Below, one piece after another: positions 16,115 to 64,000 of a DNA stretch of 64,000 bases. The position numbers were made by a program, and so were the translations under genes. Numbering within the stretch: position 1 is the first letter of the stretch; each line of letters begins with the position of its first letter. The notes beneath the pieces were generated by a model. The model made no database searches. It was not told the DNA's origin and was given only the letters and a program-made list of their open reading frames with translations. The stretch is from Macrostomum hystrix (taxonomy: Eukaryota; Animalia; Platyhelminthes). The DNA is taken from the NCBI GenBank assembly GCA_950097015.1, contig CATNEN010000033.1:620001-684000 (forward strand). The letters are read 5' to 3'.

Positions 16115-16399
16115 GTGAGTATAATTATTTGTTTTACATTTCCTCAGCTTGTATTTGTCAATAGTAACCTACCTCACAGTTCATATAGCCAAATTGTAGA
16201 GCCTAAACAGTAGAACTTAAAGACACAAAAGCTCGTCCTCAACTGGGTCTTATATGCAATTTTTCTATATATAGTATTACGCATTCAATCGAATGTATAT
16301 GCAAAGTGTCAAAGTATTGATTAATAAAATTCATTTATAGGTGTTATCGCGAAAAAAATATAACGACTTCTAAACAGAAAGTAAATACAGTATTTTAGC

Positions 16400-16620
16400 G
16401 AAAAGACTGATATGTTCTAAAAACGAAGGTAAGAGCAGTATTTTTGCAAAAGTTATTGAAGTAGTGTGCATGGCTACATCTTATGGTATTTTCGCGAAAA
16501 TACTGATATGATATTAAACAAAGGTAGTTGGTGGTATTTTTGCAAAAGTTATTGAAGTAATGTGCATGGCTACATCAATTATGCAGTATTTTCGTGAAAA
16601 TACATGCATATTATTAGACG
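16400..16620. repeat. Short palindromic array (about 2 units)
   Basis: GGTATTTTCGCGAAAATAC and GGTATTTTTGCAAAAGT units as in 23.5-24.3 kb. Confidence 0.8.
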
Positions 16621-17062
16621 AAGTATCTTGTACCTTTATAACCATAGACACATTTAGTATTTCCGCAAATTGCCAAGAGTCATGAGTGTATTTTTTCGCG
16701 AAAAGACTTTATACTGTTGTCTATTGTATTGAATACTTGTGAATGAAAAATAATGACAGTTTTTGCAAAAATACTAACGATACGATGATGAATATATTTT
16801 TGCGAAAAAATTTAACATGTTCTTAAACAAATACAAACTGCTGTATTTGTGCGAAAGTGCTTTGAGTACTAAAATACAAACAATAATGCTTAACATAGTA
16901 CTGATGATTGTTGGTGATGGTATTTTCGCGAAAAGATTATAGTGTATTTTCAATCATTTACAACACAACACCAATATGTACATATCAAATAGTATTGATA
17001 ATCAGAAGCTTTATAAAATCACTGTAATTAATCATAGTGAATGTATTTTTTATAATATCATT

Positions 17063-17140
17063 TCAAACTTGTGCCTCCTCAATTGCAATCGCTACTGCTG
17101 CTGACGCTTCCGCCTCTTCAGCTGCGGCATACAATAGGCA
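17063..17140 (-). pseudogene. 3' remnant of the acidic repeat gene AR
   Basis: CLLYAAAEEAEASAAVAIAIEEAQV*, identical to the end of 61305..62078. Confidence 0.8.
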
Positions 17141-17478
17141 GATAGACAGTTTGCCGTCTCTATTGACAATATACGATATTATCGTATTATCGCGTTGACC
17201 ATTAATCATAATCAGATGACTGATGAGATCAGTCAGTAATAAAATATTAATACGCGAACACAGATGTGTGCAGCTAGTCAATCGGTTATTATTAATACTG
17301 TTATTATTAAATTTCACCAATACATATATATAAAGTATAAATATATGTAGAATTTCATTGATTAAACAAATAATCGTGCTATTCTACAATTAGTCTGATT
17401 TGCAAAGTCGCGAGAGCAAAAATAAACGTGTAAACTATAATACATAAAATTCTGTATAAATTCTGTATTTTACAGCAT

Positions 17479-17858
17479 TCATTGTTCGATGTACCAGTAG
17501 CGAACTCCATGTATGATGAGCTGGAGTTCAGCTTGGGCGTCCTCAAAAAGCTCTAGCACTTCGATGATGTCTTGTGCTTCATCCTCTCTTATACCAGTCA
17601 CGAACAAGACAGCCTTATAGTCTTCTGCTGACCGGTGCTGTTGCAGCCATTCTTGAGTGCGCGTAATAATAAGCATAACTCATTAGCGCTATACTCAGCA
17701 TTTGGAACACCGCGCTGCAAACTAGATAGCTGCTCGAAGCACCCTAGATGCGCTATGAACCGGCCAATGCAATCTATGCGACAACTGAGAAAGAGTTGAA
17801 ATATGTGCGGGTGAAGATACATTTGCACTAACTGCATCTGATCGGCAATGAACGACAT
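17479..17858 (-). pseudogene. S1 family copy with a 1-nt deletion
   Basis: Matches 45848..46228 apart from a missing C near 17660. Confidence 0.8.
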
Positions 17859-18116
17859 GTTCAGTCAGTTAGTAAATCAAGCCAGCATAAAGCTTAAAAA
17901 ATAGTTAATTTAAAAATATTTTAAACTTTAATTGAAGTCCCCATAGAGTATACTTTAGCAAACACAAGTGAGTCAGTCCACAGACAAATCAAATGAATAC
18001 AGGCCAGTCTGGGTATTAAGAACAAGAAATCTTTCTCGGCCAAGATATCAGCCCACAACCAACGCCACAGCAGCAGCAGCAGTAGCAACAGCAACAGCAG
18101 CAACAAACTATTCGAA

Positions 18117-18505
18117 ATGGCAAGCAGCAGCAACAACAGCAGCTTATTTCATTTGTTCCCCGCGGCCTTCCGGGAACACGTCCTGGCCTCCGTTGCCGCG
18201 GAGTTGGAATCCGCCCTACATGATGCGAATAGCGCCGCGAGTTCATTGGCGGCAGCGGAGGCCTGGGCGCCCGGACGTCGCGGGGCGGAGGCGTCGATGG
18301 CCGCAGCTATGCGGCGGGTCAGGGCGGCCATGCTACGCAAGGCCAAGGCCCGCCGCATAGCTGCGGGCTTGGACCCCTATGTGAGTAGTAGATTTCGATT
18401 CTTATTTTCATTTGAATATTTATTAACACATCTGATTACAGCTGAGCTAACAAACTAAATGAAACCTAAAACCCATCTTTCATCCCGTAGCCGGGTGTAC
18501 TATAA
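18117..18505 (+). CDS. S2 small helical protein (92 aa; exons 18117..18380 and 18491..18505)
   Basis: GTGAGT...CCCGTAG intron after LDPY; micro-exon PGVL* conserved in 4 complete copies. Confidence 0.75.
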
Positions 18506-19178: not shown

Positions 19179-19448
19179 ATGTCAGCATTTCGTGGCCGTG
19201 GAAAGAAGGCTCGTGTGGATGCCAGCATTGCTACATCGGATTCTAATGGTCTACGCCAGACTAGGATCGTGGACTACTTTAGATCTGAGCAGTCAACCGA
19301 TCGTCCTACTGGCAACTCAATTAGACCGAGTGGGCAAGCAGCATCGGCATCATTCGCAGCACTGGCAGGAACGGCTGGCCGGGCATCGGCTGCCTTCAAT
19401 GTTCCCCGCCGTGCAGTAATACAGCAGCAACAGCAACCGCAGCAGCAT

Positions 19449-19487
<39 letters not shown>

Positions 19488-22400
19488 ACTGTTATTAAAA
19501 CCGCAGTTCAGAAGCGTCGACGTGTCCGATCGACTCTACGCAAGCGGACGCGTGTAGTTGTCGACTTGGATGCTTCGTCTAGCACTACATCGTCGTCTGA
19601 TGCTGAAGACACTGGCGTTGGATCTTTGGTAGCCATGCGACAGCCTCTGGTTATTGCCGCACAATCAATTGGTGGCGCCGGCGACCATGCTAATCGCATA
19701 GAGTCCACGCCTAAAGTGCTATCATCTGAAGATGACTCAGCGGACGACTTGCTAGCAGACGACGTACAGCTGGAGATTGTGGACGAGTGGACGAGCAATA
19801 CAGACAATGTAGAGTCGAATACTGCCCCTGTTTTGACGGCTTCTAATAGTTCAGCCTTGTCATCGCAGCTAGTCGATGATAAGTACAAAACAGAGGTGGC
19901 AGAATTATTGCGCGTAAATGGCGAGTCGACTATTCCTAAAAATAGTGCCGCACTTGGTGCCTGTCCGACTTCGCCAGATTATGCGCCTCGCTCTACACCG
20001 GCAATGTCTGTCATCGAGAATGGGACAACATCCGATGCTGATGAACCAGTTCGCGCTGTATTCTCTCCAGCGTATGTCGACGCTTCTCAACCAAAAGCGC
20101 AACAGTCGGGACGACTGCAGCAATCGCAGCAGCAGCAGCAGCAGCAGCATCAACAGCGAGAGCAACAACCGCAGCAACAGCCGCAGCAGCAGCAGTGGCG
20201 GCAGCAGCTGCTGCAGCAGATACAAGGGCGTGAACGGCAGCAGCAAGATGATGGCGTGGCATTTGCTCCGATAGCCGATGAATATGCGTTGTGTCGTTCG
20301 ACATCACCACTTCTACGGCTATGTCCTCGAGCTCCAATTACCGACTACGCCTCTTTAACAGCAGAGGGCAGGTCGGTTCTTATGACTAGAAGGACGCTAC
20401 ATCTTATAGAGATTGCATTCATCTCGAGCGATGTGGAAAAATTCAAGGCGTTTCTAGAAGATGAATTGGTAGCTCCATGTGCACAGTTTGCCATCGGCGC
20501 AACATCATGTATTCAGGTTGACATGCTGACCAGCGAAGAAATCCGAGCGCGTCGTCAGCAGAAATACAACATGTCAATCCGTGAATGTTTAGGAGCTCCG
20601 AATCATCCCAATGGTTTGCTGATGTTCCTGAACCTGCGCCAACCAGAAGATGGTTACACTGTTTACTGCGGACTGCATGCCCTTTTGATGGAATCTGCGG
20701 AAGCTTCGGCCTACCTGCATCCTACAATGTGTAGAATGACAGTGTCTGGTGTACGCAGTGCGTCAAGTGCAATTAAGCTAGTTACCAGTACGGACGAGTT
20801 TCCAGCTCTTTTCCGCGTTTCTACTCAAGAGTGCAGCTTGCTGACCAAGGCCTTTTGCTGGGTTGCTGCTCATGAGACGTCATCTACTGAGCCTTTGCTA
20901 GATAGTGGCTTCATGTTCGAACACTTTCGTGTCAGACAAGAGCTCAGCGATTACTTTAAGGTGACTCAGATGAAACGCGTAATAGCAACAGAGGTGCTAG
21001 CTGGTTGCCAAAACTGTCGCCCTACTGCCGCTGCCGCCGCCGCCGCTGCTGATGATGCTGCAACAGCCGACTATGCGAGGACGACCTTGCCTACTCAGCT
21101 GGAGGTATGCAAAATATTATAATACATGACATTTTTTAGCACACGTACGAGTATTGATCATTGAATTTTTGCTGTTGTTTTAATTCAAATAATTATTACT
21201 TTTGGACAATTAATTAATTAATTGTATGCGAACCTACCTAACAACACAACAGGTCTCTGCTGCTGCTGCTGATGTTGCTGCTTCCGCTGCTACTGCTGTT
21301 CAAGTATTTGATGCCGCCGTCGCTCATGTTCCCCGGCTGATCGCCGCCGCCACCAACGTGTGCCCAACTGTAAAGGCTGTGTGCAGCGCGTTGCAATTGC
21401 CAACTGGTGTCGTCTATCTATACGGCCCGTCTGGCGTTGGGAAGACACACTCTGTGCACAGTTTGCCATCGGCGCAACATCATGTATTCAGGTTGACATG
21501 CTGACCAGCGAAGAAATCCGAGCGCGTCGTCAGCAGAAATACAACATGTCAATCCGTGAATGTTTAGGAGCTCCGAATCATCCCAATGGTTTGCTGATGT
21601 TCCTGAACCTGCGCCAACCAGAAGATGGTTACACTGTTTACTGCGGACTGCATGCCCTTTTGATGGAATCTGCGGAAGCTTCGGCCTACCTGCATCCTAC
21701 AATGTGTAGAATGACAGTGTCTGGTGTACGCAGTGCGTCAAGTGCAATTAAGCTAGTTACCAGTACGGACGAGTTTCCAGCTCTTTTCCGCGTTTCTACT
21801 CAAGAGTGCAGCTTGCTGACCAAGGCCTTTTGCTGGGTTGCTGCTCATGAGACGTCATCTACTGAGCCTTTGCTAGATAGTGGCTTCATGTTCGAACACT
21901 TTCGTGTCAGACAAGAGCTCAGCGATTACTTTAAGGTGACTCAGATGAAACGCGTAATAGCAACAGAGGTGCTAGCTGGTTGCCAAAACTGTCGCCCTAC
22001 TGCCGCTGCCGCCGCCGCCGCTGCTGATGATGCTGCAACAGCCGACTATGCGAGGACGACCTTGCCTACTCAGCTGGAGGTATGCAAAATATTATAATAC
22101 ATGACATTTTTTAGCACACGTACGAGTATTGATCATTGAATTTTTGCTGTTGTTTTAATTCAAATAATTATTACTTTTGGACAATTAATTAATTAATTGT
22201 ATGCGAACCTACCTAACAACACAACAGGTCTCTGCTGCTGCTGCTGATGTTGCTGCTTCCGCTGCTACTGCTGTTCAAGTATTTGATGCCGCCGTCGCTC
22301 ATGTTCCCCGGCTGATCGCCGCCGCCACCAACGTGTGCCCAACTGAACTGTAAAGGCTGTGTGCAGCGCGTTGCAATTGCCAACTGGTGTCGTCTATCTA

Positions 22401-22877
22401 TACGGCCCGTCTGGCGTTGGGAAGACACACTCTGTGCAAAGCCATCTCGGTTCTACGAAAGTGCTGAATATCCAGGTGCAGAAGCGGTCTAACACGTTTA
22501 TGTTTGACAAGCTCTGCGAGACTATACACACTGCCATGTTTATTGACGAGCTACGCCCGCAACTGTTTGATGACACATCTGAAGTCATGTGCACACTACT
22601 TCGTTTGGTCAATGGAGACACTTTTGAAGTCAATGCTAAATACAAGGCTATTCGACACGTCTCTTGGCTCAATCGACTGTTAGTGCTTGCTGGGCATGCT
22701 CCGGTCAGTGCGTATTCGATGGACTTTCAGCGCCGATTAGAACCGACACCTGATGGGCACAAGCGTCCGGTAGTTGCCATCTTCATTGGTCATTCCCTCA
22801 GTACCGACTACCAATGCGATGGACAATGCCACCCAATACGCAATGTGTTTGGCGATCACCCGGACCGGCGAGTATGA
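19179..22877 (+). pseudogene. Rep-like/SF3 helicase paralog 1, disrupted by a ~975-bp internal tandem duplication
   Basis: Intron 21105..21252; 20478-21452 repeated with TGTGCA at the junctions; 5-nt insertion near 22345. Confidence 0.85.
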
Positions 22878-23479: not shown

Positions 23480-24320
23480 CGAAAGTAAATACTGAATTTT
23501 AGCGAAAAGACTGATATGTTCTCAAAACGAAGGTAAGAGCAGTATTTTTGCAAAAGTTCTTAAAGTAGGTGTGTGCGTGGCTACATGGTATGGTATTTTC
23601 GCGAAAATACTGCTATGCTATTAAACAAAGGTAGTTGGCGGTATTTTTGCAAAAGTTATTAAAGTAGGTAGTGGTGTGCATGGCTACATATTATGGTATT
23701 TTCGCGAAAATACTGCTATGCTATTAAACAAAGGTAGTTGGCGGTATTTTTGCAAAAGTTCTTAAAGTAGTGTGCATGGCTACATATTATGGTATTTTCG
23801 CGAAAATACTGCTATCCTATTAAACGCAGGTAGTAAAGGTAGTTTGCGGTATTTTTGCAAAAGTTATTAAAGTAGTGTGCATGGTTACATCTTTAGGTAT
23901 TTTCGCGAAAATACTGCTATGCTATTAAACAAAGGTAGTTGGCGGTATTTTTGCAAAAGTTATTAAAGTAGGTTATATGCGTGGCTATATGTTAAGGTAT
24001 TTTCGCGAAAATACTGCTATGCTATTAAACAAAGGTAGTTGGCGGTATTTTTGCAAAAGTTATTAAAGTAGGTTATATGCGTGGCTATATCTTATGGTAT
24101 TTTCGCGAAAATACTGCTATGCTATTAAACAAAGGTAGTTGGCTGTATTTTTTGCAAAAGTTCTTGAAGTTGTATGCGTGGCTATATCTTAAGGTATTTT
24201 CGCGAAAATACTGCTATGCTATTAAACAAAGGTAGTTGGCGGTATTTTTGCAAAAGTTATTAAAGTAGGTTATATGCGTGGCTATATCTTAAGGTATTTT
24301 CGCGAAAATACATGCATATT
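23480..24320. repeat. Tandem array of ~100-bp units, each with palindromes GTATTTTCGCGAAAATAC and TTTTGCAAAA
   Basis: 8 perfect cores counted between 23593 and 24310, plus a degenerate lead unit. Confidence 0.95.
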
Positions 24321-24798
24321 ATTAGACTAAGTATCTTGTACATTTTTAACCATAGACACATTTAGTATTTCTGCAAATTGCCAAGAGTCATGAGTGCATT
24401 TTTTTCGCGAAAAGACTATATACTATCTATATATTGTATTGAATACCTGTGAATGAAAAATAATGACAGTTTTTTTGCAAAAATACTAACGATACGATGA
24501 TGAACATATTTTTGCGAAAGAACATGTTCTAAAACAAATACAAACTGCTGTATTTATGCGAAATTGCTTTGAGTATTAAAATAATATGAACGTTTACAAA
24601 CAAAAAAAATAGAAACAATAATGCTTACGTTTGTGCTTATGATTGTTGGTGATGGTATTTTCACGAAAATATTAGTGTATTTTCAATGACTAACAAAACA
24701 ACACCAATATGTATATCAAATCGTTATGATAATCAGAGGCTTTATTTATAAAATAACTGTAATGAATCATAGTTTCTGCATTATTTTATAATATAATT

Positions 24799-25638
24799 TC
24801 AAACGTATGCCTCCGCCTCTTCAGCTGCGGCATACAATAGGCAGTCGTCAGCTGGGTCAAATAAACAGCTACTGGCTGCCATCGCTGCCGCTGATGCTGA
24901 CGCCTCCGCCTCTTCAGCTGCGGCATACAAAAGCTCGTCATCAGCTGGGTCAAACAAGCAGCTACTGGCTGCCATCGCTGCCGCTGCTGCTGACGCCTCC
25001 GCCTCTTCAGCTGCGGCATACAATAGGCAGTCGTCAGCTGGGTCAAATAAACAGCTACTGGCTGCCATCGCTGCCGCTGCTGCTGACGCCTCCGCCTCTT
25101 CAGCTGCGGCATACAAAAGCTCGTCATCAGCTGGGTCAAATAAACAGCTACTGGCTGTCATCGCTGCCGCTGCTGCTGACGCCTCCGCCTCTTCAGCTGC
25201 GGCATACAAAAGCTCGTCATCAGCTGGGTCAAATAAGCAGCTACTGGCTGCCATCGCTGCCGCTGCTGCTGACGCCTCCGCCTCTTCAGCTGCTGCATAC
25301 AAAAGCTCGTCATCAGCTGGGTCAAACAAGCAGCTACTGGCTGCCATCGCTGCCGCTGCTGCTGACGCCTCCGCCTCTTCAGCTGCTGCATACAAAAGCT
25401 CGTCATCAGCTGGGTCAAAGCAATTGGCTGCCATCGCCGCTTCGACCTCTTCAGCTACGGCGTATAACAAATGGTCGTCTGCCAGGCCGAATACAAAACT
25501 GTATGTTGAATTGTATGTTTCATCATACCCGTAGTCATCATAGCCTGGCTCTTCATTCAGCTCAACGTCATCGTCGTGACAGTTGGATTTTTCCGCATCG
25601 TTTAGAGTTGGCCCTGATGATGATGTTGATGTAGGCAT
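24799..25638 (-). CDS. Acidic repeat protein AR (279 aa; seven 31-aa DPADDELLYAAAEEAE units)
   Basis: 93-nt period; ATG preceded by a TTTAAATA box; second copy at 61305. Confidence 0.75.
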   Translation of the reverse strand: MPTSTSSSGPTLNDAEKSNCHDDDVELNEEPGYDDYGYDETYNSTYSFVFGLADDHLLYAVAEEVEAAMAANCFDPADDELLYAAAEEAEASAAAAAMAASSCLFDPADDELLYAAAEEAEASAAAAAMAASSCLFDPADDELLYAAAEEAEASAAAAAMTASSCLFDPADDELLYAAAEEAEASAAAAAMAASSCLFDPADDCLLYAAAEEAEASAAAAAMAASSCLFDPADDELLYAAAEEAEASASAAAMAASSCLFDPADDCLLYAAAEEAEAYV

Positions 25639-25872: not shown

Positions 25873-26331
25873 ATGTCATCCCTGGGTGGGCGGCACAATG
25901 GCGGAGATCGAGATCGAGATATCGACAGAGAGGAACACAACTCTGGCAACGACAAACCGATCTCGTGCCCTACCGTCAGTAGCAGCACGGATGTCGTGAT
26001 TGGCACTGAGCGGCGTCGACGAAGGCACAGTTCGGATAGTAGTTCAGACTCCGATTTTGCTATTCTGCCTTCACGTCAACGTGTTCAGTACGTATTGCAT
26101 CGTCCAGGTGTCGTGCGCATTTACAATCAGAGATTTGGAATTGTGAACGCCAATCCGACACGTGATTTAGCCGGCCAATTGCAACTGCCGCAGCATGCGC
26201 AAGTGACCGATATACAGTCACCAGTTATAAGCAGCAGCAGCAGCAACAGTAACAATGGCGGCACTGGCACTGAAAGAGAGCGCGGCGATGCCAATCGTGC
26301 TGCTAATAACCCAGATTTGAATGACATGTAG
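25873..26331 (+). CDS. S3 small basic/Ser-rich protein with RRRRR NLS-like motif
   Basis: ACAACATG start; ORF kept in 4 copies with in-frame indels only. Confidence 0.65.
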   Translation: MSSLGGRHNGGDRDRDIDREEHNSGNDKPISCPTVSSSTDVVIGTERRRRRHSSDSSSDSDFAILPSRQRVQYVLHRPGVVRIYNQRFGIVNANPTRDLAGQLQLPQHAQVTDIQSPVISSSSSNSNNGGTGTERERGDANRAANNPDLNDM

Positions 26332-26841: not shown

Positions 26842-27222
26842 TCATTGTTCGATGTACCAGTAGCGAACTCCATGTATGATGAGCTGGAGTTCAGCTTGGG
26901 CTTCCTCTAAAAGCTCTAGCACTTCGATGATGTCTTGTGCTTCATCGTCTCTTACACCAGTCACGGACAAGACAGCCTGATAGTCTTCTGCTGACCGGTG
27001 CTTTTGCAGCCATTGTTGAGTGCGCCGTAATAATAAACATAAGTCATTAGCGTTGTACTCTGCATTTGGAACACCGCGTTGCAAACTAGGTAGCTGCTCG
27101 AAGCACCCTCGATGCGCTATGAACCGGCCAATGCAATCTATGCGACAGCTGAGAAAGAGTTGAAATACGCGCGGCTGAAGATACATTTGTACTAACTGCA
27201 TCTGATCGGCAATTAACGACAT
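26842..27222 (-). CDS. S1 protein (126 aa, unknown function)
   Basis: Five copies, three intact; homologous to S1b. Confidence 0.75.
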   Translation of the reverse strand: MSLIADQMQLVQMYLQPRVFQLFLSCRIDCIGRFIAHRGCFEQLPSLQRGVPNAEYNANDLCLLLRRTQQWLQKHRSAEDYQAVLSVTGVRDDEAQDIIEVLELLEEAQAELQLIIHGVRYWYIEQ

Positions 27223-28720: not shown

Positions 28721-28800
28721 TTACCATCTGGCCGTACGTTAGCCAGATTTCAGTTTTTTTCTGAAAGCTTTCATCTGGCTAACGTACGGCCCGATGATAA
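28721..28800. other. Branched hairpin / inverted repeat, copy 1
   Basis: Perfect 19-bp arms 28730..28748 and 28773..28791; inner arm TTTCAG-T7-CTGAAA. Confidence 0.85.
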
Positions 28801-29598
28801 TGTGAGCATTAGCCAGCCCTGCTCTGCACCCGGACATCCCCGTGTTTCAAAATATAAATACACAGGACTGCTATGGTATTGTAGTGTATAGTGATTCGGT
28901 GTGACGGTTCAGTGGTTCACATACTGCGACATGTCACATACTGGTTGAACAGTATAATGTATTTTCGCGTCCTTCAATGGAAGCTGCTAAGATATCTGCT
29001 GGCTATGTGACATGTCGCAGTATGTGAACCACGAACCGTCACATTGCTCTGCACCCGGTCACCCGTTTCAAAATATAAATAAATAATAAACAAAAATAAT
29101 TTAGTGTTTGTAATTTGTTTAATTGTTAATAGTACACAACTTCTTGTCTCGTTTATTTTATCATTAAAATAATATGAACTGACTGGCGGTGTTATATGCG
29201 ATGTACATTGGCGCTGAGACTTATTACAAGACCGACGTAATCGTAATCGATCAGTCTGAGATATTATGTTTGTATTTATATTGCGCAAAACCTGAGAATA
29301 ATGAAGTGGACTTAAAGCTGAAATTGATGTTATTCAATTCGTTTGTTATTATAAAATTGATATAATCAAATCGCGTAAAAGTTTATATTTTTTAGTTTTT
29401 TATTACACCAACGTATATTAAATCAGGCGATTAAATCAAGTTCAGTCTTAATTATACCATAATAAGTGGTAACTTAAGTGAGTCATTATAAGTGAGTCAG
29501 TCGATTATTCAGCAAGCCAGCCAGCCAGCCAATCAGCCAGTAGACGTTCAAAGATGCCCAATCTGAGTTGCACGCAGAGCCAATTGAATTGAATGAAA

Positions 29599-31269: not shown

Positions 31270-31585
31270 CATATATAGTATTTTCGCGAAAATACTGATA
31301 TGCTCTATAAACAAAGGTAAGGGCAGTATTTTTGCAAAAGTTCTTGAAGTAGTGTGCATGGCTACATCTTATGGTATTTTCGCGAAAATACTGCTATGCT
31401 ATTAAACAAAGGTAGTTGGCGGTATTTTTGCAAAAGTTCTTAAAGTAGTGTGCATGATTACATCTTTGGTATTTTCGCGAAAAGACTGCTATGCTATTAA
31501 ACAAAGGTAGTTGACGGTATTTTTGCGAAAATTCTTAATGTAGTGTGCATGGCTACATCTTATGGTATTATCGCGAATGCAGATA
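31270..31585. repeat. Palindromic array (3 full units plus 1 degenerate) upstream of Z1
   Basis: Same ~97-bp unit. Confidence 0.9.
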
Positions 31586-36490: not shown

Positions 36491-36562
36491 TAGTGACTGG
36501 GATTCGAACCCGAGCCACTGGTATCGTAAAAGAATGCTTGTGACCTGCACGCCAGATCACTA
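36491..36562 (-). ncRNA. tRNA-like putative Pol III gene, copy A (72 nt)
   Basis: TATAAATA at -33..-26, TGGCGTGCAGG A-box-like motif, GGTTCGAATCC B box, 7-bp terminal stem TAGTGAT/GTCACTA, T5 downstream; no canonical anticodon arm. Confidence 0.55.
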
Positions 36563-49963: not shown

Positions 49964-50383
49964 ATGAATGCTCATCCTGTGGCGCTGTTCGGCTCGCCGG
50001 CCATCGTGGCACTCCTGGCCAGATGCGACATCGCCTGCCTGGCCCCGTTCCTGGCGCACCGAGGACGACTGGAGCAGCTGACCTGCCTGCAGCGCCACTG
50101 CCCGAATGCTGAGCTGAATGCCACCCAGCTACACACCTTGCTGAAGAGCCTCCTGGACTGGCTGCTACAACACCAGACAGCTGCGGGCTACGAGACCATC
50201 CTGGAGGTGACCTGCCTAACAGAGAACGAGGCTTTCGACTTGGCCGAGCTGCTAGGCCTGCTGGAGGACACCTGTTCGGAGCTGCAGCACATTCTACACG
50301 GGCTGGACTACTGGCGCGGCGTGCAGCAAAGGGCAAGACTGCGAGTGTTGCTCCAGAGTCGCGAATATCGAATGGAGCAGTAG
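49964..50383 (+). CDS. S1b protein (139 aa), intact paralog of S1
   Basis: FLAHRGRLEQL...LQHILHGLDYW aligns with S1 FIAHRGCFEQL...LQLIIHGVRYW. Confidence 0.75.
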   Translation: MNAHPVALFGSPAIVALLARCDIACLAPFLAHRGRLEQLTCLQRHCPNAELNATQLHTLLKSLLDWLLQHQTAAGYETILEVTCLTENEAFDLAELLGLLEDTCSELQHILHGLDYWRGVQQRARLRVLLQSREYRMEQ

Positions 50384-55185: not shown

Positions 55186-55204
55186 CAGCAGAACTCCAAT
55201 TATA

Positions 55205-55795
55205 AGAGTTTATGGACTTAGAGAATTTACAATCTGTAAATTCTCGACCGTCCCAAGGCTTAAATAGTGTGGTGAGATTGGGGCGGGATAGAGGGAGCCA
55301 GTTAGTATATACTCTAAAGAAAGGTGCGCGTTGTATATTTTCGCTGGAGGCAATATGACGGAGATTATATCTAGATCGGGCTTGATGACGACTAGTTACT
55401 ATAATAGATGACCGAAAATGCATGGTGTTTCTATTTTTAGCCTAAGGCGCACCTTTCTTAAGAGTATATACTGGCTTGCGTGCCCCATAGACTTCAATAG
55501 GCTGCCATTTAAATACACACGAGCCAGCTTGTATATATATACTCTTAAGAAAGGTGCGCCTAAAGCTAAAAATAGAATCGAATCGCCCGGGGTTTAGCCA
55601 GCCCGGCTATATACTAGCCCCCATATGCCGACGACGACGACGAAGTCAAGTTGCGAAAAAACAGCTCGCGCACCTTTCTTTAGAGTATATATATATAATA
55701 CCTGCATTTACTCCACCAGCCACACCAACTAAGCTCTGGGGACGGTCGAAAATTTTATCACTGACATGATAAAATTCTCTAAGTCCGTAAACTCT
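55205..55795. mobile_element. Foldback/MITE-like element
   Basis: IR pairs AGAGTTTATGGACTTAGAGAATTT / AAATTCTCTAAGTCCGTAAACTCT and TCGACCGTCCCA / TGGGACGGTCGA; inner AAAGGTGCGC / GCGCACCTTT repeats. Confidence 0.6.
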
Positions 55796-56164
55796 AGTTT
55801 ATACGTATAGACCGATTGGGCAAGCAGCATCGGCTGCCTGAATCACATATCCGTACATATATGTGATGGATGTCGATTCGAAAACTGACTTGGCTGTGAA
55901 TAGACTCAAATGCTGGTATTTTCGCGAAAAGTGTATTTATTTTCGCAAAAATACTGATATGTTTCCAAAACAAAGGTAAGGGTAGTATTTTTGCAAAACG
56001 TTCCTGAACTACTCTCTATATTCGCTGAATAAAAATTATCAGTCTGTTAGAAAAAAAATTGTATTAGTGGTCAAGATTTCACCATTTGCAGACAAACGTC
56101 ATTAAAACTCGAACATGCGAAAGAAAATAAATATAAATAGCCAGATAACACACTATTTGATTGT

Positions 56165-56236
56165 TAGTGATCTGGCGTGCAGGTCTAAGGCATTTCTCTC
56201 TAATACCAGTGGCTCGGGTTCGAATCCCGGTCAGCC
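56165..56236 (+). ncRNA. tRNA-like putative Pol III gene, copy B
   Basis: TATAAATA at 56132, GGTCTAAGGC (tRNA-Leu-like D loop), GGGTTCGAATCCC, T6 at 56243. Confidence 0.5.
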
Positions 56237-56433
56237 TTACGCTTTTTTGTTATTAAAAAAACAGCTAACATTTTACTATCAATGAAAATAAATCTTTACT
56301 AGAAATCTATTTTTTTATATTCGAATCCCCACTATTTGTGGATCCCCATTATTATTAACGTACTTTTGCTCGAATACGCCAGTTAAGAAAAGAAAAGCAA
56401 TATAAATAGCCAGACAACACACACTTTAATTGT

Positions 56434-56504
56434 TAGTGAACTGGCATGCAGGTCTAATGCATTGTCGCTAGTACAAGTGGCTCGGGTTCGAATCCCATTC
56501 ACCC
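56434..56504 (+). ncRNA. tRNA-like putative Pol III gene, copy C
   Basis: TATAAATA at 56401, same A/B boxes, T7 at 56511. Confidence 0.5.
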
Positions 56505-56984
56505 AACGCATTTTTTTATTTAAAAAAATGGGCAATATTATACTAGAAATGAAAAAATATTTTTACTAGGAATCTGTTTTTTTATATTGGAATCCACACT
56601 TTTTGTGTGGATCCCCATTATTATTAATGTTTACTTACTACTGCAATATTACTTATAGTAGGGCCGATTGCACCTGAAGTAGTAAAGTATACTGCGAAAG
56701 TAATTGAATTAACATGGCTAGTCTATATACTTGTAATGGCTTTTTCGCGAAATAGCCATAGAAATTTTATCTATTAGTATTTGCGAATTGGGGATTGCAA
56801 TACACACGAGTGAATTTTCGCGAAAAAAAAGTTTTGTCTGTAGTCAAACCTAGAACTACAGTTGAGTACAGTCGCAAAAGTGACCTATGTAAGACTGAGC
56901 GCGCTTAACATCTACTTTGTGACCGACTGACTGACCGACCGAGTAATTACGAGTTAATTCCTACGCCTCGACTTGAATTTTGAA

Positions 56985-59700
56985 ATGTCAGCATTTCGTG
57001 GCTGTGGAAAGAAGGCTCGTGTGGATGCCAGCATTGCTACACCGGATGCTAATGGTCTACGCCAGACTATGATCGTGGATTACTTTAGATCTCAGCAGTC
57101 AACCGATCGTCCTACTGGCGCAGCATCTAGACCGAGTGTGCAAGCATCATCGGCATCATTTACAGCAATGGCAGGAACGGCTGGTCGGGCATCGGCTGCC
57201 TTCACTGTTCCCCGCCTTGCAGTAATACAGCAGCAGCAGCAGTCGAAACAGCAGCAGCAGCAGCAGCAGCCGAAGCAGCAGCAGCCGAAGCAGACTGTCC
57301 CATCGAGTGCAATTCGGAAGCGTCGATATGCCCGATCGACTCTACGCAAGCGGACGCGTACAGTTGTCGATTTGGATGCTTCGTCTAGCAATTCATCGTC
57401 GTCTGATGCTGAAGACACTGGCGTTGGATCTCTAGTAGCCATGCGACAGCCTCTGGTTATTGTTGCCCAACCAATTTGTGGCGCCGGCGACCATGCTGAT
57501 CGCATAGAGTCCACGCCTAAAGTGCTATCATCTGAAGATGACTCAGCGGACGACTTGCTAGCAGACGACGTACAGCTGGAGATTGTGGACGAGTGGACGA
57601 GCAATACAGACAATGTAGAGTCTAATACTGCCCCTGTTTTGACGGCCTCTAATAGTTCAGCCTTGTCATCGCAGCTAGTCGATGATAAGTACAAAACAGA
57701 GGTGGCAGAATTATTGCGCGTTAATGGCGAGTCGACTATTCCTAAAAATAGTGCCGCACTTGGTGCCTGTCCGACTTCGCCAGATTATGCGCCTCGCTCT
57801 ACACCGGCAATGTCTGTCATCGAGAATGGGACAACATCCGATGCTGATGAACCAGTTCGCGCTGTATTCTCTCCAGCGTATGTCGACGCTTCTCAACCAA
57901 AAGCGCAACAGTCGGGACGACTGCAGCAATCGCAGCAGCAGCAGCAGCATCAACAGCGAGAGCAACAACCGCAGCAACAGCCGCAGCAGCAGCAGTGGCG
58001 GCAGCCGCTGCGGCAGCAGATACAAGGGCGTGAACGGCAGCAGCAAGAAGTTGGTGGCGTGGCATTTGCTCCGATAGCCGATGAATATGCGTTGTGTCGT
58101 TCGACATCACCACTTCTACGGCTATGTCCTCGAGCTCCAATTACCGACTACGCCTCTTTAACAGCAGAGGGCAGGTCGGTTCTTATGACTAGAAGGACGC
58201 TACATCTTATAGAGATTGCATTCATCTCGAGCGATGTGGAAAAATTCAAGGCGTTTCTAGAAGATGAATTGGTAGCTCCATGTGCACAGTTTGCCATCGG
58301 CGCAACATCATGTATTCAGGTTGACATGCTGACCAGCGAAGAAATCCGAGCGCGTCGTCAGCAGAAATACAACATGTCAATCCGTGAATGTTTAGGAGCT
58401 CCGAATCATCCCAATGGTTTGCTGATGTTCCTGAACCTGCGCCAACCAGAAGATGGTTACACTGTTTACTGCGGACTGCATGCCCTTTTGATGGAATCTG
58501 CGGAAGCTTCGGCGTACCTGCATCCTACAATGTGTAGAATGACAGTGTCTGGTGTACGCAGTGCGTCAAGTGCAATTAAGCTAGTTACCAGTACGGACGA
58601 GTTTCCAGCTCTTTTCCGCGTTTCTACTCAAGAGTGCAGCTTGCTGACCAAGGCCTTTTGCTGGGTTGCTGCTCATGAGACGTCATCTACTGAGCCTTTG
58701 CTAGATAGTGGCTTCATGTTCGAACACTTTCGTGTCAGACAAGAGCTCAGCGATTACTTTAAGGTGACTCAGATGAAACGCGTAATAGCAACAGAGGTGC
58801 TAGCTGGTTGCCAAAACTGTCGCCCTACTGCCGCTGCCGCCGCCGCCGCTGCTGATGATGCTGCAACAGCCGACTATGCGAGGACGACCTTGCCTACTCA
58901 GCTGGAGGTATGCAAAATATTATAATACATGACATTTTTTAGCACACGTACGAGTATTGATCATTGAATTTTTGCTGTTGTTTTAATTCAAATAATTATT
59001 ACTTTTGGACAATTAATTAATTAATTGTATGCGAACCTACCTAACAACACAACAGGTCTCTGCTGCTGCTGCTGATGTTGCTGCTTCCGCTGCTACTGCT
59101 GTTCAAGTATTTGATGCCGCCGTCGCTCATGTTCCCCGGTTGATCGCCGCCGCCACCAACGTGTGCCCAACTGTAAAGGCTGTGTGCAGCGCGTTGCAAT
59201 TGCCAACTGGTGTCGTCTATCTATACGGCCCGTCTGGCGTTGGGAAGACCCACTCTGTGCAAAGCCATCTCGGTTCTACGAAAGTGCTGAATATCCAGGT
59301 GCAGAAGCGGTCTAACACGTTTATGTTTGACAAGCTCTGCGAGACTATACACACTGCCATGTTTATTGACGAGCTACGCCCGCAACTGTTTGATGACACA
59401 TCTGAAGTCATGTGCACACTACTTCGTTTGGTCAATGGAGACACTTTTGAAGTCAATGCTAAATACAAGGCTATTCGACACGTCTCTTGGCTCAATCGAC
59501 TGTTAGTGCTTGCTGGGCATGCTCCGGTCAGTGCGTATTCGATGGACTTTCAGCGCCGATTAGAACCGACACCTGATGGGCACAAGTGTCCGGTAGTTGC
59601 CATCTTCATTGGTCATTCCCTCAGTGCCGACTACCAATGCGATGGACAATGCCACCCAATACGCAATGTGTTTGGCGATCACCCGGACCGGCGAGTATGA
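56985..59700 (+). CDS. Rep-like/SF3 helicase paralog 1, intact (855 aa; exons 56985..58907 and 59056..59700)
   Basis: 148-nt GT-AG phase-0 intron; Walker A GPSGVGKT, Walker B MFIDE, B-prime RLVNGDTFEVNAK, motif C LVLAGH, Arg finger FQRRL. Confidence 0.85.
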
Positions 59701-60079
59701 GCGACAAGACGGTGCTGTTAGCAGGTTTTTTTACACCAAACTGCCTGCATGCTGCTATTTTATCGACTATATTTTTACTCGGTCCTTCAGTCAGTCTTTC
59801 AGCTGTTTTTTTTATATTTTTTACTGTTTCATTCTGTTTTTGTATGCAATTTTATAATTAGTCATACAAATAAAATCAATTTATATGCTCAGTTTTGAGC
59901 TTTTATTGTTGTGAAGTAGGTAATTGCTACTTCTGTTGCAAAAAAAATCATATTTCTTATTACTATATATAGTATTACGCATTCAAACGAAGGTATATGC
60001 AAAGTGTCAAAGTATTAATTAATAAAATTCATTTACAGGTGTTATCGCGAAAATAAAATAACGACTTTTATCCGAAAGT

Positions 60080-60865
60080 AAATAGCGGTATTTTTGCAAA
60101 AGTTATTAAAGTCGTGTGAATGGCTACATCTTAAGGTATTTTCGCGAAAAGACTGCTATCCTATTAAACGCAGGTAGTAAAGGTAGTTTGCGGCTGTGAC
60201 CTGGAAAAGTTATTAAAGTAGTGCGCATGGCTACATCTTAAGGTATTTTCGCGAAAAGACTGCTATGCTATTAAACAAAGGTAGTTGGCGGTATTTTTGC
60301 AAAAGTTATTAAAGTATGTTATATGCGTGGCTATATGTTAAGGTATTTTCGCGAAAATACTGCTATGCTATTAAACGCAGGTAGTAAAGGTAGTTTGCGG
60401 TATTTTTGCAAAAGTTATTAAAGTAGTGTGCATGGCTACATCTTAAGGTATTTTCGCGAAAATACTGCTATGCTATTAAACAAAGGTAGTTGGCGGTATT
60501 TTTGCATAAGTTATTAATGTAGGTTATATGCGTGGCTATATCTTATGGTATTTTCGCGAAAAGACTGCTATGCTATTAAACAAAGGTAGTTGGCGGTATT
60601 TTTGCAAAAGTTATTAAAGTAGGTTATATGCGTGGCTATATCTTAAGGTATTTTCGCGAAAATACTGCTATGCTATTAAACAAAGGTAGTTGGCGGTATT
60701 TTTGCAAAAGTTATTAATGTAGGTTATATGCGTGGCTATATCTTATGGTATTTTCGCGAAAATACTGCTATGCTATTAAACAAAGGTAGTTGGCGGTATT
60801 TTTGCAAAAGTTCTTGAAGTTGTGTGCGTGGCTATATCTTAAGGTATTTTCGCGAAAATACATGC
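60080..60865. repeat. Palindromic ~100-bp tandem array
   Basis: 8 TTTTCGCGAAAA cores counted. Confidence 0.95.
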
Positions 60866-61304
60866 ATATTATTAGACTAAGTATATTGTACTTTTTTAAC
60901 CATAGACATATTTAGTATTTCTGCAAATTGCCAAGAGTCATGAGTGCATTTTTTTCGCGAAAAGACTATATATTATCTATATATTGTATTGAATACCTGT
61001 GAATGAAAAATAATGACAGTTTTTTTGCAAAAATACTAACGATACGATGATGAACATATTTTTGCGAAAGAACATGTTCTAAAACAAATACAAACTGCGA
61101 AATTGCTTTGAGTACTAACATACAAACAATAATGCTTAACATAGTGCTGATGATTGTTGGTGATGGTATTTTCGCGAAAAGATTAGTGTATTTTCAATCA
61201 TTTACAACACAACACATATGTAGATATCAAATAGTATTGATAATCAGAAGCTTTATAATATCACTGTAATTAATCATAGTGAATGTATTTTTTATAATAT
61301 CATT

Positions 61305-62078
61305 TCAAACTTGTGCCTCCTCAATTGCAATCGCTACTGCTGCTGACGCTTCCGCCTCTTCAGCTGCGGCATACAATAGGCAGTCGTCAGCTGGGTCAAA
61401 TGTACAGCTACTGGCTGTCATCGCTGCTGCTGACGCCTCTGCCTCTTCAGCTGCGGCATACAATAGGCAGTCGTCAGCTGGATCAAATAAACAGCTACTG
61501 GCTGCCATCGCTGCCGCTGCTGCTGACGCCTCTGCCTCTTCAGCCGCGGCATACAATAGGCAGTCGTCAGCTGGGTCAAATAAGCAGCTACTGGCTGCCA
61601 TCGCTGCCGCTGCTGCTGACGCCTCTGCCTCTTCAGCTGCGGCATACAAAAGCTCGTCATCAGCTGGGTCAAATAAGCAGCTACTGGCTGCCATCGCTGC
61701 CGCTGCTGCTGACGCCTCCGCCTCTTCAGCTGCTGCATACAAAAGCTCGTCATCAGCTGGGTCAAATAAACAGCTACTGGCTGCCATCGCTGCCGCTGCT
61801 GCTGACGCCTCCGCCTCTTCAGCTGCTGCATACAAAAGCTCGTCATCAGCTGGGTCAAAGCAATTGGCTGCCATCGCCGCTTCGACCTCTTCAGCTACGG
61901 CGTATAACAAATGGTCGTCTGCCAGGCCGAATACAAAACTGTATGTTGAATTGTATGTTTCATCATACCCGTAGTCATCATAGCCTGGCTCTTCATTCAG
62001 CTCAACGTCATCGTCGTGACAGTTGGATTTTTCCGCATCGTTTAGAGTTGGCCCTGATGATGATGTTGATGTAGGCAT
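61305..62078 (-). CDS. Acidic repeat protein AR (257 aa; six 31-aa units)
   Basis: Same N-terminus as 24799..25638, different repeat count. Confidence 0.75.
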   Translation of the reverse strand: MPTSTSSSGPTLNDAEKSNCHDDDVELNEEPGYDDYGYDETYNSTYSFVFGLADDHLLYAVAEEVEAAMAANCFDPADDELLYAAAEEAEASAAAAAMAASSCLFDPADDELLYAAAEEAEASAAAAAMAASSCLFDPADDELLYAAAEEAEASAAAAAMAASSCLFDPADDCLLYAAAEEAEASAAAAAMAASSCLFDPADDCLLYAAAEEAEASAAAMTASSCTFDPADDCLLYAAAEEAEASAAVAIAIEEAQV

Positions 62079-62313
62079 GGCGAGACAATGGGGGCAGTAT
62101 TTAAAATGTTGAACTTGTTTTATTTACTTCATTAATTGTCCAAAGTTTCAACTGCATTGATTACATATTCCCAATCACATAAGATTATCAGCAAGCTTGT
62201 TACCATAGACTAGCAATAGGGTTTTTAGTTGGTTACTTTACTAAGGTAAGTGGCGTAACTTATTTACACATTTTAGATTCTTAATTATTGTTTCAAATAA
62301 AAAAAACTACAAC

Positions 62314-62772
62314 ATGTCATCACTGGGTGGGCGGCACAATGGCGGAGATCGAGATCGAGATATCGACAGAGAGGATCACAACTCTGGCAACGACAAACCG
62401 ATCTCGTGCCCTACCGTCAGTAGCAGCACAGATGTCGTGATTGGCACTGAGCGACGTCGACGAAGGCACAGCTCGGATAGTAGTTCAGACTCGGATTTTG
62501 CTATTCTGCTTTCACGTCAACGTGTTCAGTACGTATTGCATCGTCCAGGTGTCGTGCGCATTTACAATCAGAGATTTGGAATTGTGAACGCCAATCCGAC
62601 ACGTGATTTAGCCGGCCAATTGCAACTGCCGCAGCATGCGCAAGTGACCGATATACAGTCACCAATTATAAGCAGCAGCAGCAGCAACAGTAACAATGGC
62701 GGCACTGGCACTGAAAGAGAGCGCGGCGATGCCAATCGTGCTGCAAATAACCCAGATTTGAATGACATGTAG
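62314..62772 (+). CDS. S3 protein copy
   Basis: Near-identical to 25873..26331. Confidence 0.65.
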   Translation: MSSLGGRHNGGDRDRDIDREDHNSGNDKPISCPTVSSSTDVVIGTERRRRRHSSDSSSDSDFAILLSRQRVQYVLHRPGVVRIYNQRFGIVNANPTRDLAGQLQLPQHAQVTDIQSPIISSSSSNSNNGGTGTERERGDANRAANNPDLNDM

Positions 62773-63285
62773 CAATTGTTTTGTTAAGCACTGTTGCCAT
62801 TGCTTATAATGAAATTAATTAACTGATTAATATAATTAGAAGTTTCATGTATTTGATTCATACATCAGAGTATTTAAAATCGACAGTTCATGATGCCTGC
62901 AAATGTTTTAAAGTACTTTTATATACACTAGCTCTCGTTCACCTTCACGTGGTATATTCAAAGCATAAGAGTTTGCCGTCACTATTGACAATATATTGTC
63001 GCGTTTACCATTAATCATAATCAGACGACTGATGAGATCAGTCAGTAATAAAATATTAATACGCGAACACAGATGTGTGCAGGTAGTCAACCGGTAATTA
63101 TTAATACGGTTTTTATTAAATTTCACCAATACATATAGAGTATAAATATATATAGAATTTCATTGGTTGAACAAATAATCGTGCCATTCTACAATTAGTC
63201 TGATTTGCAAAGTCGCGAGAGCAAAAATAAACGTGTAAACTATAATACATAAAATTCTGCATATAAATTCTGTATTTTACAGCAT

Positions 63286-63666
63286 TCATTGTTCGATGTA
63301 CCAATAGCGAACTCCATGTATGATGAGCTGAAGTTCAGCTTGGGCTTCCTCTAAAAGCTCTAGCACTTCGATGATGTCTTGTGCTTCATCGTCTCTTACA
63401 CCAGTCACGGACAAGACAGCCTGATAGTCTTCTGCTGACCGGTGCTTTTGCAGCCATTGTTGAGTGCGCCGTAATAATAAACATAGCTCATTAGCGTTGT
63501 ACTCTGCATTTGGAACACCGCGTTGCAAACTAGGTAGCTGCTCGAAGCACCCTCGATGCGCTATGAACCGGCCAATGCAATCTATGCGACAGCTGAGAAA
63601 GAGTTGAAATACGCGCGGCTGAAGATACATTTGTACTAACTGCATCTGATCGGCAATTAACGACAT
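63286..63666 (-). CDS. S1 protein copy
   Basis: Intact; 1 aa difference from 26842..27222. Confidence 0.75.
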   Translation of the reverse strand: MSLIADQMQLVQMYLQPRVFQLFLSCRIDCIGRFIAHRGCFEQLPSLQRGVPNAEYNANELCLLLRRTQQWLQKHRSAEDYQAVLSVTGVRDDEAQDIIEVLELLEEAQAELQLIIHGVRYWYIEQ

Positions 63667-63954
63667 GTTCAGTCAGTTAGTAAATCAAGTAAAGCAAAAA
63701 ATAGTTTTGTTAAAAAAAATTCTAAACTTTAATCGTTTAATAAGAAGCGATATACTAATATTAATATTAATGCGATAAGAAGCCCCCATAGAGTATAATT
63801 TATCGAACACAGGTGAGTCAGTCCAGAGACAAATCAAATGAATACAGGCCAGTCTGGGTATTAAGAACAAGAAATCTTTCTCGGCCAAGAAATCAGCCCA
63901 CAACCAACGCCATACGGACAGAAGCTACAGGATAGCGAGCGACACAGCACGGAC

Positions 63955-64000
63955 ATGAGCAACAATAGCAACAAATTTCCCTCCTTCACCGCGGCGTTCC
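63955..64000 (+). CDS. S2 protein, 5' end (cut by the window edge)
   Basis: MSNNSNKFPSFTAAF at the expected position after the S1/S2 spacer. Confidence 0.6.
   Translation, partial: MSNNSNKFPSFTAAF

Follow-up and report, generated by a model that had tools for sequence, protein, structure and literature searches.

The question raised by this 64-kb window, by which we mean the whole stretch of DNA analyzed, is whether its repeated genes belong to one mobile element and, if so, of which kind. A sequence-only reading had placed an integrated element at 16230..64000. We confirmed that rearranged copies of one multi-gene DNA element occupy 16225-64000 and also 1-704; the proposed main cluster thus stands, but its start is not a boundary. 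The left edge (16225..16623) consists of an R-repeat remnant (sharing ACAAAAGCTC) followed by a short palindrome array, and position 16225 is a truncation inside that remnant, not a terminus. The fragment at 1..704, which holds the 5' part of the ZnF gene and a palindrome array, is 94% identical to 30786-31348 and abuts a LINE-type endonuclease remnant, with the junction at 704. Of 16225-64000, 76% is duplicated at a distance elsewhere in the window, and the order HelB-array-R-S-M1 is present twice (19017-27258 and 56833-63702). That these duplications are assembly artefacts, an objection that the reading had itself raised, is ruled out for most copies by their 77-99% identity and codon-biased divergence. 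The recurring gene set was borne out, although "about 8" types became nine upon mapping: HelA, HelB, YR-like, ZnF, R, S, M1, M2, and T. Introns are present as claimed; they are AT-rich, follow the GT-AG rule, and keep the frame, with two in the YR-like gene and one in HelB copy 2. HelA and M2 are richer in GC (0.64 and 0.62) than HelB, YR, and M1 (0.47-0.51), so that two related elements may be interleaved. Within the 64-kb window, we found no terminus, target duplication, att site or pair, or circle junction; a 46-50 bp repeated motif, with two copies at 37184..37319 (plus strand) and also at 54169-54219, is a candidate recombination site.

Helicase A (51031..53928, plus strand) comprises a disordered N-terminus, a dead HUH domain, a zinc knuckle, and an SF3 domain; it has an intron at 52706-52786 and changes frame twice, near 52050 and 52650. 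Helicase B copy 1 (19179..22877, plus strand) is broken in the assembly by an internal tandem duplication (975 bp as assembled, halves 99.4% identical, 9-bp microhomology), and copy 2 (56985..59700, plus strand) is open over 855 aa, with an intron at 58908-59055. Both paralogs carry Walker A, Walker B, the motif B'/C region, and the arginine finger (GPSGVGKT / FLDE / QRR) within an SF3 fold, and their profiles match NS1, Rep, and E1 (the last at 5e-11), as expected of the two SF3 paralogs first proposed. In the VIA structure comparison, SV40 LT (Z 11.0, rmsd 2.5, 129 aligned) was listed first, level with other AAA+ rows. The helicase model (pLDDT 78.7) found AAV Rep68 (433-480 columns) and CRESS Reps as best Foldseek matches, the comparison being of full-length helicase alignments to Rep68 and CRESS Reps; a single-sequence fold (pLDDT 33) was set aside. 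Both helicases hold a zinc knuckle, as in LT/E1; in LT, a zinc module lies between the origin-binding domain and the SF3 helicase, as it does here.

The proposed LT/E1-like nature was strengthened by the origin-binding region, which proved to be a catalytically dead HUH domain. The nicking motifs are gone, with TLS / SLTQ in HelA and GLL / LVTS in HelB at HUH motifs II / III. Among outside homologs, HxH is kept in 15 of the 16 covering motif II and the motif III tyrosine in 17 of the 18 with a recognizable motif III. When a profile of the intact nuclease domains was run against the 780 ORFs of the window, the four helicase ORFs were the sole matches (E 5e-9 to 2e-8). HelA and HelB are thus HUH-Rep-derived SF3 proteins devoid of the nicking histidines and tyrosine, that is, initiators of the LT/E1 type. 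Macrostomum lignano has diverged orthologs of both paralogs (P0001, 70%; P0003, about 55%), and relatives of the dead-HUH helicase are present in unrelated public data sets. Scans with intact-HUH homologs as queries returned only distant CRESS-like contigs (11 loci, 22-38% identity), and a word-based protein search with HelA gave no match among longer forms and one among near lengths. In a first tree of 31 rows, the zinc-knuckle group was broken by the long branch P0024; after pruning of six long or short rows (P0013, 19, 23, 24, 36, and 39), it formed one side of a 96/93 branch, beside the intact-HUH P0025/P0031. The nearest outside relatives of both helicases are CRESS-type Reps retaining the nicking residues, which, in this unrooted tree drawn without E1 and LT, suggests a separate loss of nicking activity. 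The linkage between helicase and YR is observed at this one locus.

The YR-like gene (32836..35886, minus strand) has three exons (introns 35276-35173 and 34348-34237) and is open over 944 aa; a 3' partial copy lies at 40358-41204. Its product combines zinc fingers, a middle domain, a tyrosine-recombinase-like catalytic domain, and a disordered tail. The zinc-finger N-terminus proposed earlier is present; the recombinase itself is predicted from language-model features and motifs, with no profile-level match in Pfam, PHROGs, or PDB sequences and none in protein databases. Atlas language-model features place the protein at 0.91-0.94 to the Phage_integrase, NDC10_II, and ResT-TelK clusters, and its 10 best named matches all fall in one clan, with 109-157 of 256 features shared, below the level usual for the same family in this tool. 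By eye, candidate Arg, Lys, Arg, and Tyr residues can be assigned at YR-like spacing, and both His positions of the R-H-R-Y tetrad are replaced (G/D and T). A word-based protein search with YR yielded none among 979 candidates, and phages and PDB sequences gave no meaningful match. The ZnF gene (29599..31077, minus strand; 492 aa) encodes a disordered tail behind an N-terminus with two zinc fingers, which the YR-like protein also has (BLASTP E 4e-15, 32% over 96 aa); partial copies lie at 37645-37910, 44783-44865, and 48466-49705. ZnF and M alignments found nothing significant in the PDB.

The palindromic arrays are as conspicuous as claimed, with 80 TTTYGCRAAA cores in 16230-64000, most commonly spaced 48 bp apart, where 50 local shuffles averaged 0.22 (maximum 2). 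In the array at 23496..24331, each unit of about 100 bp carries GTATTTTCGCGAAAATAC and, 48 bp on, a degenerate second palindrome; further arrays have three units (31274..31577) and about eight (60037..60881). Two long imperfect palindromes of about 80 and 144 bp (28721..29043; DNA fold z -10.8) have related sequences near 47693-47983. A nested palindrome of 590 bp (55205..55795; fold z -16.7), absent from the earlier reading, contains a 24-bp motif four times, its orientation alternating (55306+, 55447-, 55536+, 55668-; 0 expected), and is a candidate origin or resolution site.

The tRNA-like genes were confirmed, in three copies. One gene (36490..36562, minus strand), with ACG at the anticodon position, has TATAAATAG upstream and a T run downstream, and two tandem genes with a 269-bp period (56164..56507, plus strand) each have a TATA box, A and B boxes, and a T run. 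A 19-nt T-arm motif (0 expected) is common to all three, but their cloverleaves stay below the thresholds of ARAGORN and Rfam and no anticodon is conserved: ARAGORN called no tRNA at default settings, Rfam returned no family at gathering level, and the anticodon region differs from copy to copy. At a 95% ARAGORN threshold, two of them were the only intronless calls (99.3 and 97.3 of 100), the third scoring lower. A selenocysteine-tRNA identity was rejected, since tRNA-Sec, the one family that Rfam listed, scored no better than E 4.4.

If these genes formed the early region of an encapsidated virus resembling adomaviruses or meldviruses, its virion genes would have been deleted, lie outside the window, or be too divergent for recognition. 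Such an origin has precedents: Buck et al. 2024 (PMC11071296) describe adomaviruses in which RepLT, RepE1, or CressRep is paired with adenovirus-like virion genes, Meld19810, which joins a helicase and Yrec to adintovirus virion genes, and RepE1 cressviruses integrated in sea anemones as high-copy, rearranged arrays. The late region might be sought in the neighboring adintovirus-type remnants (packaging-ATPase-like and PLA2; 5255-5728, 13581-14042, and 14009-14440), but these have decayed, are not part of the repeated unit, and have a lower CpG o/e than the element (0.80 versus 1.07). At least four Macrostomum entries appear in the supplement of the same paper, all of them adintoviruses among those listed. 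Inside the element, none of the 17 ORFs scanned matched a DDE, RT, PolB, PIF1, or capsid gene in Pfam, in agreement with the sequence-only reading; neither pPolB nor rve integrase was found by Pfam, and no ORF or Pfam match in 16225-64000 corresponded to a VP1 or L1 jelly-roll capsid. Every single-copy stretch of at least 150 bp is accounted for, Pfam, PHROGs, and this check revealed no recognizable virion gene, and no capsid-sized unassigned ORF is left across several overlapping copies. Metagenome contigs held no relative of the element, nor did viral contigs in a search sensitive to close relatives only. We consider a viral early region, the main rival reading, rather unlikely; the read depth speaks partly for it. 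Four runs of one study each covered the element in 29-30 of 30 bins, and relative to host microsatellite contigs its median depth, which is not copy number, was 0.82 in X1, compatible with infection, and 0.008-0.039 in X2-X4.

Alternatively, a dead Rep family and a separate Crypton-like YR might have been amplified by unequal crossing-over into a nonmobile macrosatellite or B-chromosome repeat, the differences between lines being cytogenetic. The tandem scrambled layout, microhomology junctions, several broken copies, and lack of termini would fit, and repeat-rich B chromosomes occur in Macrostomum, numbering from 1 to 14 within a single species (PMC8708343). The helicase and YR copies likewise show no significant purifying selection (dN/dS 0.72 and 0.62 for HelB, 0.88 for YR; also 0.71 for ZnF; none significantly below 1). 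The small genes tell against it. R (24799..25638, minus strand; second copy 61305-62078), an acidic protein of 93-bp (31-aa) repeats, has dN/dS 0.18 (p 7e-6), and S (25873..26331, plus strand, about 150 aa; further copies 41455-41892, 44879-45334, and 62314-62772) has 0.15-0.42, with p<0.05 in five of six pairs. Purifying selection is also seen in some pairs of M1, a small helical protein that is broken near codon 67 at 17479..17858 (minus strand), open at 26842..27222 (minus strand; 126 aa), and further present at 42421-42800 (broken), 45848-46228, and 63286-63666. Its paralog M2 (49964..50383, plus strand; 139 aa, 45% identity) has a broken copy at 38624..39043 (minus strand) and a partial one at 31878-32282; the Ala/Arg-rich T gene (about 100 aa) lies at 18117..18458 (plus strand), 27435-27713, 43046-43366, and 46460-46744. 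With several genes under purifying selection and the element in all four runs, the copies are real. Together with the long open spliced frames, the lack of CpG depletion, the twice-repeated gene order, and the helicase relatives in unrelated data sets, this makes a nonmobile repeat improbable. We give hardly any credence to a linear, hairpin-ended replicon of plasmid type, whose YR-like protein would be a telomere resolvase acting on the 590-bp palindrome and not an integrase, for although ResT-TelK_cat scores 0.91 in Atlas and the palindrome resembles a fused end pair next to a GC skew flip (+0.25 to -0.19), phage-integrase clusters score higher (0.93-0.94) and the palindrome is imperfect, without a long perfect center.

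On balance, the element is probably a dsDNA replicon of a new kind that integrates, depends on host polymerases, and encodes a predicted tyrosine recombinase. As both helicases are Reps without nicking residues, it likely replicates as dsDNA in the manner of polyoma- and papillomaviruses, and it likely enters and leaves the chromosome as a circle by way of the predicted recombinase. The dead HUH domain would bind the origin, for which the four-motif palindrome is the best candidate, with the SF3 hexamer unwinding the DNA and host polymerases copying it; the arrays, which we liken to baculovirus hr, may be auxiliary origins or enhancers. While YR would recombine, the free ZnF protein, carrying the DNA-binding N-terminus of YR, might compete for the same sites, and the tRNA-like genes may yield Pol III noncoding RNAs and not decoding tRNAs. 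The scrambled tandem layout could stem from recombination and from re-replication driven by the helicases where the element is integrated. Of the replicon first proposed, the parts list and the LT/E1-like helicases hold; excision, integration, and circular replication we continue to infer. It is tempting to go further and propose, at somewhat less than even chances, a new class of mobile element in animals: a capsid-less, YR-integrating episome that acquired its LT/E1-like initiator independently from CRESS-type Reps through loss of nicking, that is amplified to high copy number in certain worm lines, and that is part of a wider helicase clade seen in unrelated invertebrate and environmental data. 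Our literature search found no description of such a helicase-recombinase combination in an animal transposon or virus.

How does this gene set compare with known systems? As tested, it falls outside Helitrons, Cryptons, and Polintons, as had been claimed, and likewise outside Polinton-like viruses (PLVs) and adomaviruses. With Helitrons, CRESS viruses, and parvoviruses, the element shares an HUH-fold domain fused to a helicase; unlike in Helitrons, the helicase is SF3 and not PIF1, and with the catalytic HxH and Tyr absent, it would not perform the rolling-circle nicking of an active HUH, be it CRESS virus or Helitron. Cryptons are likewise eukaryotic DNA elements with a YR, a predicted circular intermediate, and ends that are hard to define (PMC3212892), but they encode a YR (some also a peptidase), and the word "helicase" is absent from PMC3212892; here, YR is one of nine gene types in shared synteny and lacks the tetrad His, and the element ends, where 4-6 bp terminal direct repeats would be expected of a Crypton, lie outside the window. 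PLVs and meldviruses with Yrec also combine YR and helicase in integrating dsDNA of 15-25 kb with predicted circularization, but their defining genes, MCP, mCP, and packaging ATPase, were not found in the element, and their S3H is linked to a primase or TVpol and not to a dead HUH Rep (PMC4642659, PMC11071296). Adomaviruses and RepE1 cressviruses share an LT/E1/Cress-type Rep and a mid-size genome but carry virion genes, and no YR is mentioned for them in the parts of PMC11071296 that the analysis covered. Endogenous nimaviruses of invertebrate genomes have a YR with a C2H2 zinc finger and an N-terminal SAM-like domain, some multi-exon, but these viruses are large and carry WSSV core genes, of which we recognized none in the element (PMC10871703). 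If circles and YR-made junctions exist, animals would have a class of DNA element that is neither cut-and-paste nor Helitron, Crypton, or Polinton; should a virion module exist, the element would instead be the less novel case of a new virus family, still of interest. The closest parallel in initiator design is with polyomavirus large T and papillomavirus E1 (Papovaviricetes), which combine an SF3 helicase with an inactivated HUH domain (PMC6668415). These viruses, too, have spliced genes, a long disordered N-terminus, and no polymerase, but the element differs in its two paralogous initiators and YR-like gene and in that no VP1/L1 was found. Polyoma- and papillomaviruses are proposed to have arisen when a Rep that nicks for rolling-circle replication (ssDNA) became a helicase that binds the origin without nicking (dsDNA), a change whose drivers PMC6668415 calls "obscure". 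Because one profile links the dead and intact HUH forms, this transition can be compared and put to the test in a laboratory animal, and should the episome reading hold, the element would be an animal counterpart to bacterial integrative plasmids and would parallel, in a living system, the step from which polyoma- and papillomaviruses emerged.

Self-comparison of the window showed that positions 16225–64000 and 1–704 consist of one set of modules whose copies have been rearranged, with a distant second copy for 76% of this region; the single-copy stretches are the 5' part of the recombinase gene, HelA, the palindrome region, and short spacers. We mapped nine recurring or co-occurring gene types, in line with the roughly eight of the sequence-only reading: two SF3 helicase genes (HelA and HelB), a predicted tyrosine recombinase gene (YR-like), a zinc-finger gene (ZnF), an acidic repeat protein gene (R), two small genes (S and T), and two small paralogous genes (M1 and M2). 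Two blocks show the order HelB, array, R, S, M1, and three show the order S, M1, T. CpG observed/expected is 1.07 in the element versus 0.80 in the flank (705–16224). Junctions between modules have short or no microhomology, and their inspection yielded no true element terminus within the 64-kb window, since the left edge (16225) lies inside an R-repeat remnant. For most copies we reject an assembly artefact, a possibility that the sequence-only reading had raised: identity between most copies (86–99%), codon analysis, and presence in contigs from sequencing runs X1 to X4 lead us to regard the copies as genuine and the element as real.

Codon analysis compared copy pairs within the window, which are not independent of one another, and gave dN/dS values of 0.15–0.42 for S (p<0.05 in 5 of 6 pairs), 0.18 for R, and 0.09–0.85 for M1 (p<0.05 in 4 of 10 pairs). 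For the window copies of HelB (0.72 and 0.62), ZnF (0.71), and YR (0.88), the signal of purifying selection was not significant. Part of HelA was present in five of the seven runs listed, four of the five being from one study. Over 44001–64000, contigs from X1 to X4 covered 29 to 30 of 30 bins, at a median depth of 1011 in X1 versus 6–10 in X2 to X4. In one bin, the excess depth contributed by host contigs of CAG repeats was 1236 versus 261–718, and the ratio of element median to this excess was 0.82 versus 0.008–0.039. This gives a rough hint that relative element abundance is 20- to 100-fold higher in X1, contig depth not being equivalent to copy number. Contigs from X1 and X2 (records 4 and 11) leave the window sequence near 49694, hinting that the ZnF–M2 join there is specific to this locus.

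The two SF3 helicase paralogs had been described as LT/E1-like from the sequence alone, and alignment and structural comparison agree. The second HelB copy has an open frame of 855 aa; HelA contains two frame changes, and the first HelB copy is broken, with an apparent 975-bp duplication within it. The only close relative of HelA in the database is a hypothetical protein of Macrostomum lignano, with 70% identity; another M. lignano protein falls into one group with HelB. When 1.84 billion proteins were searched with a profile, 39 matched at E<=0.001, and upon alignment these formed two sets. The set containing HelA and HelB has a CxxC...CxxxxxxC knuckle ahead of the P-loop but is devoid of HUH catalytic residues ("dead HUH"): the motif III Tyr is absent in all seven non-window fragments spanning this motif, a count that leaves out P0011 and P0039, where the aligned letters look spurious. 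In the other, mostly intact set, the Tyr is kept in 17 of the 18 proteins whose motif III can be recognised and HxH in 15 of the 16 spanning motif II, the exception being P0036. One intact-set protein matches Gemini_AL1, and intact-HUH relatives show a 22–38% match to small CRESS-like viral contigs. A profile restricted to the intact nuclease regions, run against the 780 window ORFs, matched just the four helicase ORFs, a result that is partly circular because the homologs had been selected by helicase query.

An AlphaFold model of the helicase alignment (pLDDT 78.7) had among its best Foldseek matches AAV Rep68 (over 433–480 columns), parvovirus NS1, E1, and CRESS Reps. In the VIA ranking, SV40 LT shared first place with other AAA+ domains (Z 11.0, rmsd 2.5, 129 aligned), in an alignment spanning the helicase part only. 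In the SF3 tree, which is unrooted, the knuckle group formed one side of a 96/93 branch, adjoining two intact-HUH Reps; this branch was obtained after dropping 6 of 31 rows, and with all rows one long branch broke the group. According to Kazlauskas et al. (PMC6668415), LT and E1 are SF3 helicases with an inactivated HUH domain. Judged by this architecture, HelA and HelB therefore work like LT/E1, and, going by their motifs, the nearest relatives found for them still nick. The dead-HUH Rep clade itself is well supported; relatives of the dead form were recovered on short contigs in JGI, ENA, and Logan data.

Several further Reps deserve mention. P0019 and P0029, each from a 1916-bp contig, cover the helicase and dead-HUH halves and, given the equal lengths, may together make up an intron-containing relative, one exon each, in another organism. 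P0036, outside the zinc-knuckle clade, likewise has neither HxH nor the motif III Tyr and matches PPV_E1_C (7e-10); it may mark another loss of HUH activity. An 8513-bp IMG/VR contig holds two Rep-plus-capsid-like units, diverged and in tandem, that belong to a CRESS-type genome. In the window, short spacer segments at 28627–28711 and 47660–47706 resemble the HelB 5' end (78–89% over 28–47 bp) and are perhaps the vestigial start of a third helicase paralog.

The YR-like gene has three exons with GT-AG introns and a 944-aa open frame, and its N-terminal double zinc finger is common to ZnF (E 4e-15). Exon 3 matched unnamed eukaryotic Atlas clusters at 0.94–0.95 and, among named ones, Phage_integrase at 0.93–0.94 (on 29–67% of members) and NDC10_II and ResT-TelK at 0.91. 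All ten best named clusters belong to one clan, with low shared-feature counts, and we treat the two Atlas searches as one source of evidence. Candidates for the catalytic Arg, Lys, Arg, and Tyr were found, at spacings that we take to resemble those of known YRs. Of the zinc-finger tyrosine recombinase proposed earlier, the zinc fingers and YR-clan features stand, whereas both catalytic His positions are replaced and Pfam, PHROGs, PDB sequences, phages, and the protein database yielded no match. The C-terminal part likely has a tyrosine-recombinase fold, with a predicted recombinase role. The R protein (24799–25638 and 61305–62078) repeats an acidic-hydrophobic, DDELLYAAAEEAE-like motif, with a similar stretch at the HelA start (51031–51110); this may be a docking motif for host proteins.

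Palindromic arrays were also borne out: the core TTTYGCRAAA occurs 80 times versus 0.22 expected, mostly at 48-bp spacing, in arrays with units of ~100 bp. A 590-bp nested palindrome (55205–55795; z -16.7), located between the HelA end and the tRNA-like/HelB block, contains four 24-bp motifs in alternating orientation that are absent from the rest of the window and is a candidate origin of replication. Further palindromes lie at 28721–29043 (z -10.8), and a 46–50 bp motif at 37184, 37272, and 54169. At 54426–55182, a purine-rich duplicated 287-bp segment is followed by a (CCACA)n-like tract, and the GC skew changes sign adjoining the 590-bp palindrome. Each of the three tRNA-like genes has TATAAATAG upstream, boxes for the D and T arms, and a T run, but the anticodon region differs among them. 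Two of the three score slightly under the ARAGORN threshold; we infer that they are Pol III non-coding RNAs.

The flank (705–16224) holds decayed elements unrelated to the repeated set, including a LINE endonuclease. Decayed adintovirus/Maverick-type genes span 1777–5728 and 13581–16118: by eye, an exonuclease-like ORF (1777–2520), two packaging-ATPase-like remnants (5255–5728 and 13581–14042), and an OTU-like fragment (15792–16118), and by Pfam (1.7e-10) a PLA2-like ORF (14009–14440). A Tc1/mariner element (2791–4440) is inserted in a Maverick-type gene; its terminal inverted repeats measure 157 bp (98%), and its DDE_3 ORF of 381 aa is open. A broken Gypsy-type LTR retrotransposon (8505–11429) retains gag, protease, RT, and RNase H pieces, and adjacent minisatellites of 23 bp (15 copies) and 18 bp (47 copies) occupy 12170–13365.

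We slightly favor, as the most likely mechanism, an element that would replicate in LT/E1 style and integrate by means of its YR. The gene combination is well supported; mobility and circles are predictions. The chief rival, which we consider rather unlikely, is a virus that lacks its virion genes at this locus. At the level of Pfam/PHROGs sequence comparison, no element ORF matched a packaging ATPase or capsid, nor DDE, RT, PolB, or PIF1, as the sequence-only reading had noted for all but the ATPase; a divergent virion protein may be present among S, T, M, and R. A non-mobile amplified repeat ranks after the virus and is improbable.

Full-text searches of the open-access literature listed nothing that describes this gene set; the papers covered included PMC8502044, PMC3212892, PMC8708343, and PMC4642659. 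The Buck et al. supplement (PMC11071296) has at least four Macrostomum rows, all adintoviruses among the rows listed, and may hold relatives of the element. Within the window, the element does not match what defines a Helitron/CRESS, Crypton, Polinton, PLV, adomavirus, or papovavirus, which upholds its earlier placement outside the first-named transposon classes Helitron, Crypton, and Polinton. Its YR does resemble those of nimaviruses in one respect, a zinc finger, which is of the C2H2 type in the nimaviral proteins (PMC10871703).
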